Shown here: positions 3,105 through 37,710 of the stretch, piece after piece
Layout of the letters: each line of letters opens with the position of its first letter
How positions within the stretch are numbered: position 1 is the first letter of the stretch
Sequence record: OZ035783.1
Length of the DNA: 43,594 nucleotides
Direction: 5' to 3' (one strand)
DNA from: Kagunavirus PDP21P8
Position numbers and translations under genes: made by a program
Notes under the pieces: generated by a model
Seen by the model: the letters and a program-made list of their open reading frames with translations, nothing else
What the model was told of the DNA's origin: nothing
Database searches by the model: none

Positions 3105-3136
3105 TGAATAGTACCCTATTATATTGGTGTCTGCAA
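3105..3136 (-). promoter_or_regulatory. early-type promoter with AATAG-N4-CTATT operator
   Basis: minus-strand reading TTGCAG-17 nt-TACTAT; inverted repeat GAATAG-tacc-CTATT overlaps -10; 23 bp identical to site at 14310-14332. Confidence 0.5.
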
Positions 3137-3180: not shown

Positions 3181-4224
3181 ATGAGCTTACTTACATCTCT
3201 AATCAGCCACCAGATATGGCTGCAACGCACCGCATCCGGCGAGGTGAAAGACCTCGCGCCGTTCATCCATGAGATGCGGGATGAAATTAAACGGCAGGTG
3301 CTGTTATTCGGTGACGACAGCCGCAGCGCCGCGCGACTGAATAAACTGTTACGTGACCTGGAAGAAGCGCTAACTGGACTTACAGGTGACTGGCAAACAA
3401 AGCTGACAGAAGACCTTAAGGAACTGGCGGCGTATGAGGCTGAGTGGAACGTAAAAACGCTGACGACTAACGTTAACGCGGAATTTGTTACGCCTACCGC
3501 CGAACAAGTGTGGGCCGCCGCCGAGTTCCAGCCCGTATCGTTAAGCGACAAACCGGCCGACTTCGCTAAACTGATGTCGGGCTGGGGTGAAACCGAAGTC
3601 GCGCGCCTTGTAACCGGCGTTAAGATGGGCTTTGTGCAAGGCCAGACAACACGGCAGATTGTTAAGAATATTGTAGGCGCTGGTGGACTAGCGGACATAT
3701 CCGAGCGCAATGCGGCTACTGTAATCCGCACCGCGCTGTCTCACGTGTCAAACGAAGCCCGTAACGAGACGTACCGCCAGAATGACGACATTATCGAGAA
3801 GTACGAGTGGGTGTCTACGCTGGACAGCCGTACCAGTACTATTTGCAGAGCCAGGGACGGGATGACGTGGGAAATTGGTAAAGGGCCAATGCCCCCCGCC
3901 CATCCGAATTGTCGAAGTACCACGGCACCGGTGATAAGTTCCGAGTTCGACTTCCTCGATAAAGGCGCAAAACGCGCGGCTAAGGGTGCAGACGGCGGTA
4001 CTCAGGTAAGCGCAGACACCACTTACTACGAGTTCCTGAAACAACAACCGGCATGGTTTCAGGATGAAGCACTCGGGCCGACCCGCGGTAAGATTTTCCG
4101 CAACAGCGGTATATCACCGGAAGAGTTTCGCGTAATATCTGTAGATGGTTTCGGGAATCCGCTGACGCTTAAGCAGATGGCGGAACTCGATAAACGTGTT
4201 GCTGATTATCTGAAAGGGGAATAA
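3181..4224 (+). CDS. head morphogenesis protein (Mu F / SPP1 gp7-like)
   Basis: ATG 3181 with SD AGGAGGG; C-terminal PAHPNCRSTT motif resembles the conserved H-x-NCRC of Mu F-like proteins; follows portal. Confidence 0.65.
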   Translation: MSLLTSLISHQIWLQRTASGEVKDLAPFIHEMRDEIKRQVLLFGDDSRSAARLNKLLRDLEEALTGLTGDWQTKLTEDLKELAAYEAEWNVKTLTTNVNAEFVTPTAEQVWAAAEFQPVSLSDKPADFAKLMSGWGETEVARLVTGVKMGFVQGQTTRQIVKNIVGAGGLADISERNAATVIRTALSHVSNEARNETYRQNDDIIEKYEWVSTLDSRTSTICRARDGMTWEIGKGPMPPAHPNCRSTTAPVISSEFDFLDKGAKRAAKGADGGTQVSADTTYYEFLKQQPAWFQDEALGPTRGKIFRNSGISPEEFRVISVDGFGNPLTLKQMAELDKRVADYLKGE

Positions 4225-4685
4225 TGATGGGCTTTTTCAAAGTAACTGATGTACCGTCACGTCGCGTAGTCCAGTACGCCCGCGTGTCTGGCTCTGGCGA
4301 GAACGTGGTATTTATTGAAGATGAAAGTGTACTCGGTACACCTGTAGACGATATGCCGTTCGCAGATAAGACCGGTATTGCGCTGCCAGCGGCGGGTATG
4401 CTTTATGAGATTCCGTATCTGGCGGACGCGGGCGATGTGTATTTCTCTGTGCAACCGCAGGACACGGAACTGGCAGACGGCAGCGCAACTATCACTGTCG
4501 AAGTTAAGGCGGGCAAAGCACCGTATGCGCTGACCTGGTACAAAGACGGTAAGGAAGTGGTAAACGCCCCGGAAGAGGCTTTGTCTCTGACGGTTAATGC
4601 GGTGGGTGAATACTTCGTTAAAGTTACCGATGCCGATGGTGTAGAGGCGGTAAGCAAAGCGGCGAAGGTTAATAAGCCAGAATAA
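4224..4685 (+). CDS. Ig-like domain protein
   Basis: C-terminal APYALTWYKDGKEV...GEYFVKVTD resembles I-set Ig fold signature; TAATG overlap with upstream gene. Confidence 0.5.
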   Translation: MMGFFKVTDVPSRRVVQYARVSGSGENVVFIEDESVLGTPVDDMPFADKTGIALPAAGMLYEIPYLADAGDVYFSVQPQDTELADGSATITVEVKAGKAPYALTWYKDGKEVVNAPEEALSLTVNAVGEYFVKVTDADGVEAVSKAAKVNKPE

Positions 4686-4689
4686 ACTG

Positions 4690-4711
4690 AAGCCCCGAAA
4701 GGGGCTTTTTA
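4690..4711 (+). terminator. rho-independent terminator
   Basis: AGCCCC-gaaa-GGGGCT hairpin followed by TTTTT. Confidence 0.6.
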
Positions 4712-4774
4712 GCGCCTGCGATTATTCCAGTTATTCCACCAAATTGTAAATATTGGAATAAACTATTCGAATAG

Positions 4775-4803
4775 TTGACTTTTCACTAAAAATGTGCTAA
4801 GCT
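4775..4803 (+). promoter_or_regulatory. putative sigma70-like promoter
   Basis: TTGACT-17 nt-TAAGCT; overlaps the perfect palindrome AACTATTCGAATAGTT (4761-4776). Confidence 0.3.
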
Positions 4804-4809
4804 CCACCT

Positions 4810-5004
4810 GAGCTTGTGAAGTATGAACAAGCGACCGCGGCGCGGGCAGGTAACGGAGCGGGACGTAAGTCCTGAGTGTAGTTACGCTGACGCGTTCGGA
4901 AGGGCCATACTCTATTGCTTGTGTAAAAAGTAACTGGTTTACTGAGATTACGCCGTTTCTATGTTTAAATGATAAGGACTAGCGCCCCGCTTTATGGCGG
5001 GGCT
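4810..5004 (+). ncRNA. candidate short transcript (ncRNA or mRNA of a 36-aa peptide)
   Basis: ~200 nt between putative promoter 4775-4803 and terminator 4982-5010; only ORF is 36 codons (4823-4933) with a weak RBS. Confidence 0.2.
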
Positions 5005-5010
5005 TTACTT
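4982..5010 (+). terminator. rho-independent terminator
   Basis: GCCCCGC-tttatg-GCGGGGC hairpin followed by TTTACTT. Confidence 0.55.
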
Positions 5011-5027
5011 ATCGAGAAAGGAGAAAC

Positions 5028-5414
5028 ATGAATCTTAAAGCAACTGTCGTAGCAGGAGCATGTTTCATCATCCTGTTATACACGCACGGCTACTATCAAT
5101 ACCGCAGCGGCTGGAACGGAGGCAGGGCTAATCTAGTTTCGCAGCAACAGCAGAAAGCACAGGCTGAGCTAGCGAAGAAAACACAACGGCAGCAGCAGGA
5201 CGAATCAAAGGCCGCCGCCGCTGACAACGAAGGCAAGACGAAATCAGAGGTGATTACCCGTGAAGTCGTTAAGTACATTAAAACGCCTGGCCGCAGCGTG
5301 TGCACTTTCGACGATGCTCGCGTCCTGCTCAAGTCCCGCGCCGTCGCAAACGCCAATTCCATCCCCGGATACGACGATGATGCAGCCGCCATGCAAACTG
5401 GCCGCGCCAAGTAG
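5028..5414 (+). CDS. i-spanin (Rz-like)
   Basis: 128 aa; N-terminal TM segment (VVAGACFIILLY), Gln/Ala/Lys-rich coiled-coil periplasmic region; contains an embedded +1-frame lipoprotein ORF. Confidence 0.55.
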   Translation: MNLKATVVAGACFIILLYTHGYYQYRSGWNGGRANLVSQQQQKAQAELAKKTQRQQQDESKAAAADNEGKTKSEVITREVVKYIKTPGRSVCTFDDARVLLKSRAVANANSIPGYDDDAAAMQTGRAK

Positions 5415-5523
5415 CGATGCCGATGAGGATTTAGCCATTGACGTTCAGAACACAGAATGTGTACGGCAACTGCGTCTGAAAGTGTTCATGTTGCAGGATT
5501 ACGTGAGGAATATTCTGGAATAG
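5260..5523 (+). CDS. o-spanin (Rz1-like lipoprotein)
   Basis: 87 aa; signal peptide with lipobox LASC; Pro-rich mature region; starts inside the Rz-like gene in +1 frame and extends past its stop. Confidence 0.55.
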   Translation: MKSLSTLKRLAAACALSTMLASCSSPAPSQTPIPSPDTTMMQPPCKLAAPSSDADEDLAIDVQNTECVRQLRLKVFMLQDYVRNILE

Positions 5524-7374: not shown

Positions 7375-7399
7375 GAGAGGGGCTTCGGTCCCTCTTTTC
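7375..7399 (+). terminator. rho-independent terminator
   Basis: AGAGGG-loop-CCCTCT hairpin followed by TTTT. Confidence 0.6.
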
Positions 7400-11766: not shown

Positions 11767-11810
11767 CTTGTGGTATAAGAAGTGTAAAGGATAGCTTTAG
11801 CGGGCGAAAA

Positions 11811-11839
11811 AGAGAGGGGTCGTGCCCTCTCTTTCCTTT
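11811..11839 (+). terminator. rho-independent terminator
   Basis: AGAGAGGG-gtcgtg-CCCTCTCT hairpin then TTCCTTT. Confidence 0.6.
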
Positions 11840-14309: not shown

Positions 14310-14341
14310 TGAATAGTACCCTATTATATTGGGGTGTGCAA
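14310..14341 (-). promoter_or_regulatory. early-type promoter with AATAG-N4-CTATT operator
   Basis: minus-strand reading TTGCAC-17 nt-TACTAT, nearly identical to promoter at 36243-36274; ends ~26 nt upstream of the ATG at 14284. Confidence 0.5.
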
Positions 14342-30226: not shown

Positions 30227-30255
30227 AATATAATAGCTAACTATTCAGGTGTCAA
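30227..30255 (-). promoter_or_regulatory. sigma70-like promoter with operator in spacer
   Basis: minus-strand TTGACA-17 nt-TATATT; spacer contains TGAATAG-ttag-CTATTAT. Confidence 0.5.
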
Positions 30256-31887: not shown

Positions 31888-32156
31888 ACCCTGTTCTCCC
31901 ACTGGTCAATTAAATGTCGTGTCTGGTGATGGCAATGCATAGCCCACCCATACATCGACTCGAAGACATAAAAGTCAGGCTTGGCGAATGTCGTGCGCTT
32001 AATCTGCGACACGTGACGGCCTATATCTTTAGGCCGCGGTACTTTGCCTAAGTACGCCATCTCTTCCATCTGGTGCGCACCAGATGTCGCACGTAACAGC
32101 CATAGCGCCTCTGTGTTATCCCGCCTGTCTACGGCGCGATAGAGTTGGTAAATCAT
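31884..32156 (-). CDS. hypothetical protein
   Basis: 90 aa ORF in leftward operon. Confidence 0.45.
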   Translation of the reverse strand: MIYQLYRAVDRRDNTEALWLLRATSGAHQMEEMAYLGKVPRPKDIGRHVSQIKRTTFAKPDFYVFESMYGWAMHCHHQTRHLIDQWENRV

Positions 32157-32764: not shown

Positions 32765-32793
32765 ACTATAATAGCGAACTATTCACTTGTCAA
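32765..32793 (-). promoter_or_regulatory. sigma70-like promoter with operator in spacer
   Basis: minus-strand TTGACA-17 nt-TATAGT; spacer contains AATAG-cgaa-CTATT; forward face carries TATAAT toward the XRE gene. Confidence 0.45.
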
Positions 32794-32813
32794 TGGGCTT
32801 TTCTAAAATAATT

Positions 32814-32830
32814 AATATGGTACTATTCAC
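32814..32830 (+). promoter_or_regulatory. second operator-like site upstream of XRE gene
   Basis: AATATGGTACTATTCAC, degenerate copy of the AATAG-N4-CTATT element, ~30 nt upstream of ATG 32858. Confidence 0.35.
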
Positions 32831-35407: not shown

Positions 35408-35641
35408 TTATTCCAGGTCTTCTAAAGTAGCGGTCATTCCGCGAACTTCAGCAACAGCACTATATTTCCCGCCAACATTCTTCACGACACCGGATTTAAC
35501 CAGTACCTTCAACGACCCTTCAATAATGGCGGAACTATAGTACCTAAAATAACTACGGCGCAAGTCCATAACGCTGCACGACCCTTTTTTACGGGTTAAT
35601 GAAACGACTGCCGTAAATACGCGGGACTGGAACTCGGTCAT
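35408..35641 (-). CDS. hypothetical protein
   Basis: 77 aa; C-terminus TLEDLE similar to the EEDLE tails of primase and DUF2800 nuclease. Confidence 0.45.
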   Translation of the reverse strand: MTEFQSRVFTAVVSLTRKKGSCSVMDLRRSYFRYYSSAIIEGSLKVLVKSGVVKNVGGKYSAVAEVRGMTATLEDLE

Positions 35642-35808
35642 TTTACATTCTCCTTAATCCACGCTTCCACTTTCTCCGGGTCGAAAGTACCCGGCTGCCG
35701 GCGGCCCATAATACGGATGCAACAATCCGGGAACTTCCCACTCTTTAACCAGTTATTCAGCGTGCGACGGGTAACCCCGATACGCTCGGCTACTTCATTC
35801 TGTGTCAT
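35638..35808 (-). CDS. AlpA/excisionase-like HTH DNA-binding protein
   Basis: MTQNEVAERIGVTRRTLNNWLKSGKFP helix-turn-helix; ATG 35808 with G-rich SD; first gene of leftward early operon. Confidence 0.55.
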   Translation of the reverse strand: MTQNEVAERIGVTRRTLNNWLKSGKFPDCCIRIMGRRQPGTFDPEKVEAWIKENVK

Positions 35809-35884: not shown

Positions 35885-35913
35885 TTGACATTATGGAAAT
35901 CTTCGTTTAAGGT
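35885..35913 (+). promoter_or_regulatory. rightward promoter, back-to-back with leftward promoter
   Basis: TTGACA-17 nt-TAAGGT. Confidence 0.35.
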
Positions 35914-36149
35914 GCTTCTGTATCTTAGTTACTTTGATTCTTGTTCACCTTGTAAAACCCGCCGAAAACGAGCGCCCAACGCGAAGTGTTAGGCGGCAGT
36001 TTACTGAACATTCGAATTATCGTAACTTTCCTTCCTAAGTATCTCCGGTTGCCCTGGGCAAGCTCTATTCCAATCGGCGGAATATATCTTAAGTATCTGA
36101 TTTTCTTAAAGTGCCGTAGATTCGCAACCGTAAAAATGTAACGATTATT

Positions 36150-36173
36150 GGGCAGGCTTAAGGCCTGCCCTTT
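36150..36173 (+). terminator. stem-loop, weak intrinsic terminator
   Basis: GGGCAGGC-ttaag-GCCTGCCC followed by TTT. Confidence 0.35.
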
Positions 36174-36242
36174 AGTTACCAAGTAATAAGAATAAAGGCA
36201 CAGCCATACCTGAAGAATCACAACGGCAACGTAACTTTTCTC

Positions 36243-36274
36243 TTGCACACCCCAACATAATAGGATACTATTCA
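36243..36274 (+). promoter_or_regulatory. early-type promoter with AATAG-N4-CTATT operator
   Basis: TTGCAC-17 nt-TACTAT with AATAG-gata-CTATT overlapping -10; ~30 nt upstream of ATG 36306. Confidence 0.5.
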
Positions 36275-36305
36275 CTTATCGAAACGAGACAGAGGAGTGA
36301 GGGTT

Positions 36306-37500: not shown

Positions 37501-37671
37501 ATGGAACTGAATGACATCGTAACCTGGACCGGTAGAAACGGAGAAAAGCGATTCGGGCTTATTGTTGCGTCAGACGGCAACAAGTACCGTGTTATGCGAT
37601 GGCGTCAGTGGGCACGACGCCCGAGGTACTACTGGATTCGTGGCGAACGATTATCGTTAAAACACCAATAA
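37501..37671 (+). CDS. small basic protein
   Basis: 56 aa, SD GGGAGA; preceded by AATAG/CTATT half-sites at 37451-37485. Confidence 0.35.
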   Translation: MELNDIVTWTGRNGEKRFGLIVASDGNKYRVMRWRQWARRPRYYWIRGERLSLKHQ

Positions 37672-37678
37672 AATTTAC

Positions 37679-37710
37679 TTGTACACTGGGATAGAATAGG
37701 CTACTATTCA
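37679..37710 (+). promoter_or_regulatory. early-type promoter with AATAG-N4-CTATT operator
   Basis: TTGTAC-17 nt-TACTAT with GAATAG-gcta-CTATT; 28 nt upstream of ATG 37739. Confidence 0.45.

Follow-up and report, generated by a model that had tools for sequence, protein, structure and literature searches.

The put RNAs of phage HK022 (putL and putR) act in cis and render RNA polymerase resistant to terminators (PMC9378689). [quoted passage not shown] AlpA of Pseudomonas acts so on lysis genes, having two target promoters that are each followed by a terminator (PalpB-tB; PMC7969949). Riboswitches and protein-binding leaders join a conserved sensor-like domain, whose helices covary and whose unpaired bases are invariant, to differing platforms. 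No paper was found on how the Guernseyvirinae time their late and lysis genes. Here we analysed the gap of 342 base pairs (bp) at positions 4686-5027 in the DNA of Kagunavirus PDP21P8 (sequence record OZ035783.1), whose whole stretch of 43,594 nt, a nearly complete genome of a Kagunavirus (Guernseyvirinae), is called the window below. That the gap encodes, on the + strand, a structured RNA about 220 nt long is strongly supported. This RNA is a real, new family in the Guernseyvirinae, and we found no description of it in the literature.

Following the annotation of phage Shashou, the gap lies between the gene of an immunoglobulin-like (Ig-like) head protein (4224-4685), in a unit of terminase, portal, head morphogenesis and Ig-like genes, and the i-spanin gene (5028-5414), which is overlapped by the o-spanin gene (5260-5523) and followed by the scaffold and major capsid genes. 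The open reading frame (ORF) 5028-5414 is annotated as i-spanin in Shashou and as an Rz-like spanin in Jersey and Ent2. The gap is 100% identical to its counterpart in Escherichia phage EF2-1 and was found at 95% identity or more in 178 phage records, from Kagunavirus, a few Salmonella phages (e.g. FSL SP-101) and Raoultella phage RP180. Jerseyvirus phages (SS3e, Ent2, Jersey, SETP3 and others) have a gap of equal size at the same place, and this diverged homologue is present in 269 records; it aligns to the Kagunavirus gap with about 60% identity, of which an ordinary BLAST search recovers just about 60 nt. We call K the Kagunavirus-type form of the gap and its RNA, J the Jerseyvirus-type form, and K2 the duplicated early copies described further on. 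Together, the K and J forms account for 447 of the approximately 461 records in which the capsid protein shares at least 80% identity with that of the window. In every relative that was annotated or read by sequence, the RNA element stands directly 5' of the spanin genes.

All the features named in the original prediction are there, and as an ensemble they go far beyond chance. It had placed a TTGACT-17-TAAGCT promoter in the gap. We recovered it at 4775-4803 on the + strand as a sigma-70 promoter (TTGACT 4775-4780, a spacer of 17 bp, TAAGCT 4798-4803) with an extended -10 element that had gone unnoticed (TG 4795-4796, separated by one c from the hexamer). A generic promoter scan missed this promoter because its -10 hexamer matches only 3 of the 6 consensus bases; such a hexamer could still work owing to the extended -10 TG. 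The layout recurs in all relatives as TGnTAAGCT or TGnTACGCT. The J-type promoter reads TAGACT..TGtTACGCT, and the K2 promoters have a spacer nearly identical to that of the late promoter. From the spacing alone, transcription is predicted to start at G4810 or A4811.

The RNA begins with a 5' module (4810-4920; all RNA features of the gap are on the + strand), made of four helices and a conserved unpaired tail. The helices were set by hand, a covariance model (R1) was built for the 5' part, and all copies were aligned to R1 (alignment A7, 38 distinct sequences); the score at window positions 4804-4920 is 148.8 bits. P1 (4812-4817 with 4827-4832) is a 5'-terminal hairpin. P2 (4835-4837 and 4839-4844 with 4891-4899), P3 (4847-4854 with 4881-4889) and P4 (4858-4864 with 4869-4877, closed by a GUAA loop) form a long irregular hairpin, with a stem of about 30 bp and internal loops, so that the module is essentially one extended hairpin plus the tail UUCGG-AAGGGCC-N6-CUAUUG, which runs to 4918. 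The sequence of P2 is almost invariant, as is that of the tail, UUCGGAAGGGCC-N6-CUAUUG.

Covariation analysis, proposed with the original prediction as a check, was run on this alignment. Standard pairs fill 96% of the cells of the 5' module, compared with 84% in shuffles and at most 41.5% when the pairing partners are slid; A7 being fitted to the model, the pairing is somewhat inflated, and the margin is large all the same. Compensatory changes, on both sides of the pair, affect 18 of the 34 pairs, and none of 500 shuffles reached the covariation score. The differences between K and J fall as compensatory pairs. Several compensatory changes are independent events inside the K type; for instance, GGGAC/GUCCU has become GGUGC/GCACU in sequence L016 and CGGAC/GUCCG in L010. 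The functional strand is the + strand, because the invariant G-U pairs of P2 would be C-A mismatches on the other one.

Other pairings were considered for this region and rejected. RNAalifold run on a MAFFT alignment of K and J put the helices out of register and was replaced by the hand-defined structures and covariance-model alignments. A hairpin P5 (GGGC 4902-4905 with GCUU 4917-4920) shows zero compensatory changes and is not kept by the K2 copies. The minimum-energy fold proposed that the loop of P1 (AGUAU) pairs as a pseudoknot with the spacer of the tail (AUACU); 4 variants are wobble-compatible with this and 4 disrupt it, the J type does not have it, and subtypes K2b and K2c leave it uncompensated. 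Finally, a pairing of the linker sequence CGCC with the 5' strand of P2 fails to follow the covarying P2 position in subtype K2a.

The module is followed by a linker (4921-4954) and by a 3' domain (4955-5030) which has the features of an expression platform. The linker contains a K-specific hairpin (AGUAA 4929-4933 with UUACU 4939-4943), kept in K variants through G-U pairs and lying in a segment deleted in Jerseyvirus, and ends with the conserved CGCC (4951-4954), common to the K, J and K2 types. The 3' domain (covariance model R2, alignment A6, 35 distinct sequences) consists of nested helices (4955-4960 with 5022-5027, 4964-4966 with 5016-5018, 4970-4976 with 5008-5014, and 4980-4982 with 5005-5007) around a terminator-like GC hairpin of 8 bp (4984-4991 with 4996-5003; -17.9 kcal/mol). 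After the hairpin comes an interrupted U-tract, UUUACUUAU (5004-5012). The Shine-Dalgarno sequence AAGGAG (5018-5023) and the AUG (5028-5030) of the i-spanin gene are embedded in the domain, whose outermost helix, GUUUCU (4955-4960) with AGAAAC (5022-5027), takes in the bases between them. In A6, 97.2% of the cells are paired, compared with at most 57% when slid, and 8 of the 27 pairs changed on both sides. Five pairs of the terminator-like helix show compensatory changes; between K and J, the outermost helix has a UA to AU swap and the helix 4970-4976/5008-5014 has GC to UA and AU to CG swaps. Folding 4941-5030 alone by minimum energy gives the same nested structure (z = -3.6). Because polymerase must pass the hairpin for the outer helices to form, the conserved object is a leader continuous with the spanin mRNA. 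A second terminator had been predicted at 4982-5010; its hairpin is there (4984-5003), and the U-tract behind it is the interrupted one. The J-type tail after the hairpin is UUAGCGUAU, in which the U-tract is poorer than in the K type and nearly absent. An alternative helix (4807-4822 with 5007-5021) is compatible with both K and J and competes with P1 and the platform; with a start at 4810, its first three pairs (4807-4809) would fall outside the RNA.

The RNA is under strong purifying selection, stronger than that on the adjacent spanin gene. Over 40 distinct K-type loci, nucleotide diversity is 0.0195 in the 5' module and 0.0235 in the platform, against 0.088 in the spanin gene overall (0.049 at second and 0.150 at third codon positions). 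The RNA is thus about 4 times less variable than the adjoining spanin gene, the only neighbouring gene measured.

Searching with R1 also revealed second copies of the module (53 to 104 bits): many Kagunavirus genomes have one, as do Shashou and at least 14 contigs of IMG/VR. Examples are found in L018 (11805-11923, - strand), L034 (12237-12355, - strand) and L136 (26532-26647, + strand, corresponding to Shashou 37531-37646), and further copies, of several subtypes, in L116, L118, L119, L121, L132-L135, L140, L141, L144 and L146. The promoter of the late copy, its spacer almost unchanged, returns in each second copy, as do P1, P2 and the tail; P3 and P4 are rewritten by compensatory changes (e.g. 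GUGCC/GGCAC in P4). The copies are located between a divergent gene for a regulator of the HTH_17 family and a rightward operon of small genes, which runs on to holin and endolysin in Shashou and Jersey. What lies downstream of the module in them bears no relation to the late platform, of which R2 finds none; it has a GC hairpin without a U-tract and then about 130 to 230 nt before the first gene. In all, three distinct downstream parts are joined to the 5' module: that of late K, that of late J and that of early K2. A conserved sensor-like module joined to a variable platform is the pattern of a cis-regulator.

As far as our searches reach, the family appears confined to the Guernseyvirinae. 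Rfam 15 gave no match at the gathering threshold in the window, phage Jersey, Shashou 11-44 kilobases (kb) or L018, and the best sub-threshold matches in 4600-5100 (E of 0.6 or more) were implausible. ARAGORN found no transfer or transfer-messenger RNA in the window. Pattern scans of IMG/VR and metagenomes returned Guernseyvirinae plus chance matches and nothing else. In bacterial genomes, the pattern scan gave 30 matches in GC-rich genomes, none of which scored with R1 except one Jerseyvirus contaminant, so that at the sensitivity of the pattern scan and R1 scoring the RNA has no bacterial homologue. The exception, L105 (NZ_JACVEL010000048.1, 738 bp, from a Taishania pollutisoli assembly), is Jerseyvirus sequence with a J-type RNA and is likely a contamination of that assembly.

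We consider that the gap is probably made of a promoter and a structured, cis-acting 5' leader of about 220 nt belonging to the late spanin-scaffold-capsid operon. We infer cis action because the module stands at the transcription start, travels with its promoter, is joined to varied platforms and, in the late copy, is fused to a structure with a weak terminator and the ribosome site of the next gene. Transcription would start around 4810 from the extended -10 promoter, timed by the upstream operator, and the nascent RNA would fold into the conserved 5' module and the operon-specific 3' platform. By default, the platform would halt part of the polymerases at 5004-5012 and, by keeping the ribosome site paired, damp spanin translation. 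The 5' module would be the cis control part, either engaging RNA polymerase directly, as put does in HK022, or binding a phage or host factor, and would set how much transcription passes the hairpin and the later terminators. In the window, strong terminator-like hairpins lie at 7375-7396 (+ strand), after the major capsid gene, and at 11809-11834 (+ strand), after the tail-tube gene, both matching terminators annotated in Shashou. These sites are within the late operon and would offer targets to a processive antiterminator.

Several points weigh against the cis-acting leader. No partner protein of the 5' module was identified, nor was a conserved pairing of the mutually exclusive terminator/antiterminator kind found to link module and platform. 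The long-range swaps in the 3' domain stem from the single K/J split and so represent few events; they still demand coordinated double substitutions at three separate pairs. R1 found no second copy in the window or in phage Jersey. In the HK022 segment where the immunity region and both put sites are expected (22.0-34.0 kb), R1 found nothing at E values up to 10, in a test run in one direction only (R1 against HK022) on a record in which nun, cI and cro are not annotated and the put positions are unconfirmed. A link between the HTH_17 protein and AlpA was tried and dropped, there being no sequence-level similarity to the AlpA chains of the PDB. The only RNA sequencing paper found for a Kagunavirus reports gene-level counts (PMC12645636). 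Finally, the hairpin with UUUACUUAU could terminate well enough for a discrete RNA of about 195 nt that also acts in trans.

Compared with put, the module shows the same stem-loops with bulges right after a promoter and upstream of terminators (PMC9378689 for put). It begins at most about 3 nt from the predicted start, exists in a second copy and has terminator-like sites downstream. Both head two operons per phage (for the module, in many Kagunaviruses), with no dedicated antiterminator gene evident. The two differ in length, the module having about 110 nt and put about 70; moreover, the module ends in an unpaired tail that does not vary, is linked to a platform masking a ribosome site and belongs to a virulent phage. 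Compared with riboswitches and protein-binding leaders, the gap likewise has a conserved sensor-like domain with covarying helices, invariant unpaired bases and variable platforms; in its own platform, a terminator-like hairpin goes together with an occluded ribosome site, as in riboswitch platforms. Unlike riboswitches, it has no Rfam match, it is one extended hairpin with a tail rather than a multi-helix junction, and it lacks a conserved alternative pairing between sensor and terminator. In its working the leader would resemble put, or a riboswitch or protein-binding leader; it is a member of neither the put nor the riboswitch and protein-binding leader families.

We propose quite tentatively that the module is either a second, unrelated put-like class, in which the nascent RNA alone reprograms the RNA polymerase of E. 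coli or Salmonella (or recruits Nus factors) so that terminators are read through, or a phage riboswitch sensing a host metabolite. In the put-like case, the RNA would drive the morphogenesis/spanin operon, and in many members also the holin-endolysin operon, of the virulent Guernseyvirinae; were it to act on RNA polymerase without protein, put would be the only RNA class of this kind before it. The put RNAs confer read-through on host RNA polymerase with no need of phage proteins, an effect blocked by mutations in the zinc-binding domain of β'. In the case of a metabolite riboswitch, lysis and late-gene expression would be tied to a host metabolite, and binding of a ligand or a protein would make it a new phage regulatory switch. 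Either way, it would offer a compact handle on late-gene control and a portable regulatory part. The spanin, scaffold and capsid genes have this RNA at their entry, and in many relatives the holin-endolysin operon does too. Among the Guernseyvirinae are the K1-capsule coliphages and the Jersey-like phages of Salmonella, which are widely isolated for use in therapy and in food safety. In public records it is unannotated or mislabelled as a hypothetical protein.

The alternative that survives best, unlikely as we judge it, is a discrete, trans-acting small RNA starting around 4810 and stopping at 5004-5012 (about 195 nt), with host or phage targets or a role in protein sequestration. The original prediction had read the gap in this sense, as a candidate small RNA made as a discrete short transcript. 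In part this holds, the RNA that we find being structured, non-coding and driven by a promoter. The gap has the promoter and, ahead of U-rich sequence, a stable GC hairpin; very strong constraint extends over the whole length of the RNA; and its 5' end forms a stem-loop, as is common for stable RNAs. A discrete transcript is not the best fit. The U-tract is interrupted in K and nearly absent in Jerseyvirus, and the long uninterrupted U tail of Hfq-type small RNAs is missing from K (UUUACUUAU), from J (UUAGCGUAU) and from K2, which has no U-tract. The conserved helices span the hairpin, run past it into the i-spanin start region and take in the spanin ribosome site. The duplicated copies have no terminator and continue into a long leader, and the late element is directly upstream of the spanin genes in every relative annotated or read by sequence. 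No conserved unpaired seed complementary to a target turned up, no search aimed at one having been made.

Very unlikely, in our estimate, is a cassette like pR'-6S RNA-tR' or that of AlpA, in which a DNA-binding antiterminator would load at the promoter and the short RNA would be a functionless by-product. The gap does share with these systems the succession of a promoter, a leader of about 200 nt and a terminator upstream of a first gene involved in lysis (spanin), with the morphogenesis genes behind it. The late and duplicated promoters have almost the same sequence between -35 and -10, a gene for a small HTH_17 protein runs divergently from the duplicated promoter, and AlpA offers a precedent for such action on lysis genes. 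A by-product, however, would not have 18 covarying pairs or a diversity 4-fold lower than that of the neighbouring gene; it is the RNA itself that is conserved here. No homologue of Q or AlpA was found: no Q-like or AlpA-like gene is annotated in Shashou or Jersey, and the small HTH_17 protein matches, in sequence, only Pfam HTH_17 and no AlpA chain of the PDB.

Equally doubtful is an element of processing or stability, in which P2-P4 would be a site of the RNase III type and P1 a 5' stabiliser, together setting the half-life of the late mRNA and sensing nothing. The 5'-terminal hairpin and the irregular stem of about 30 bp with internal loops would suit such a role, and P2-P4 recall the RNase III sites known in the early mRNA of T7 and in the N leader of λ. 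The near-invariant P2 and unpaired tail nevertheless exceed the needs of a generic double-strand site, and the joint reuse of module and promoter speaks for an action where transcription starts.

We also examined the coding potential of the gap, in which a 36-codon ORF (4823-4933, + strand) had been listed. The ORF is present in the sequence and is not coding. Its ATG lies within an 11-nt segment missing from the J type, and one-base insertions or deletions shift its frame in L010, L020, L023 and L016. A coding signal conserved across relatives, which would have spoken against a small RNA, was looked for and none was found: polymorphic sites at codon positions 1, 2 and 3 number 10, 10 and 5 in K and 6, 8 and 6 in J, a pattern opposite to that of coding sequence. 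A mini-ORF starting from UUG or AUU after the Shine-Dalgarno-like AAGGG was also considered; the spacing is conserved, the start is lost in SETP3, pse-D34 and L134, and the mini-ORF was not adopted. Public records carry hypothetical-protein coding sequences over the RNA on either strand, one of them named 'fibritin protein' (CPT_Shashou_007 and CPT_Shashou_056 in Shashou, N271_gp08 in Jersey, small ones in pse-D34, ZCSE9 and S4lw); these GenBank features are probably annotation artefacts. A small protein, encoded by the 36-codon ORF or as a frame-0 peptide ..AFGRA.LYC.., can practically be dismissed: an ORF in one and the same frame does cover the conserved block of the K and the J RNA, and several public records annotate a hypothetical protein here, whereas the start codon and N-terminal half are not common to K and J, the frame is broken in four sequences, the polymorphisms show no third-position excess, the ribosome site is not consistent, and the covariation, with its G-U pairs, is of the type seen in RNA.

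Upstream of the promoter, the gap opens with an intrinsic terminator (4689-4711, + strand), a hairpin of GAAGCCCC-GAAA-GGGGCUUC type at 4689-4708 (-14.3 kcal/mol) followed by five U to 4711. It closes the terminase-to-Ig-like unit, is annotated as a terminator in Shashou and agrees with the earlier call at 4690-4711. In RP180-type relatives, which form one class of Kagunaviruses, an inserted ORF takes its place. In RP180 (L005 2199-2552) and its equivalents in L006, L011, L013 and others, this extra ORF of about 118 codons, accompanied by a copy of the 18-nt motif described below, is located between the Ig-like gene and the TTATTCC repeats. That the insertion stops exactly at these repeats suggests that they mark the start of the regulatory unit.

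The operator-like DNA that follows (4722-4761) comprises the direct repeat TTATTCC (4722-4728 and 4731-4737), already noted in the original prediction, TGTAAAT (4744-4750), and a third, inverted copy of the repeat which had been overlooked (GGAATAA, 4755-4761). The repeat 16-mer is unique; at up to 3 mismatches, 0.36 matches are expected. Both K and J keep the TTATTCC repeats, TGTAAAT and GGAATA, despite RNAs that are only about 60% identical; the duplicated early promoters (K2) lack these sequences. The upstream DNA with its three TTATTCC copies is probably an operator timing the promoter. The perfect 16-bp palindrome AACTATTCGAATAGTT (4761-4776), which abuts the -35 element, is present as claimed and has no demonstrable role. 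It is nearly invariant in the K type and not in register in the J type. By chance, 0.67 perfect 16-bp palindromes are expected per genome of the same composition, and the window holds two. Given these numbers, and as the Jerseyvirus homologues do not keep it, the palindrome alone is not significant and we gave it no weight. The second one, TCTGGTGCGCACCAGA, is found at 32069-32084.

At the position corresponding to the duplicated module, the window has a right-operon leader (35886-36300) with a promoter TTGACA-17-TAAGGT (35886-35914) and about 390 untranslated nt. No homology was found between this leader (35.9-36.3 kb) and the 5' module. It folds far better than shuffles (about 35915-36300, z = -3.6) and contains a hairpin GGGCAGGC-UUAA-GCCUGCCC followed by UUUAGUUAC (36150-36180); possibly it too is a structured leader with the same job. 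Divergent from its promoter, the window encodes the small DNA-binding protein of the HTH_17 family (MTQNEVAERIGVTRRTLNNW..., 35638-35808, - strand), whose Jersey counterpart is annotated as an excisionase-like regulator. An RNA sequencing study of phage K1B4 lists a helix-turn-helix domain gene among 4 early genes (PMC12645636). The HTH_17 protein is a candidate regulator of the right-operon and duplicated promoters.

Finally, an 18-nt motif, TGAATAGTACCCTATTAT (a near-palindrome AATAG..CTATT followed by TATTAT), occurs 7 times in the window where 0.01 copies are expected: at 3105-3122 and 14310-14327 on the + strand, and at 30230-30247, 32768-32785, 32812-32829, 36257-36274 and 37693-37710 on the - strand. 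The copies seem to stand at the heads of transcription units, a few having been checked by eye. The same 18-nt consensus was reported for phage fBC-Eco01 as a predicted 'phage promoter' (PMC9825357), and the motif is probably an operator/promoter family of a phage regulator. The gap palindrome AACTATTCGAATAGTT contains the half-sites of TGAATAGTACCCTATTAT in reverse order.

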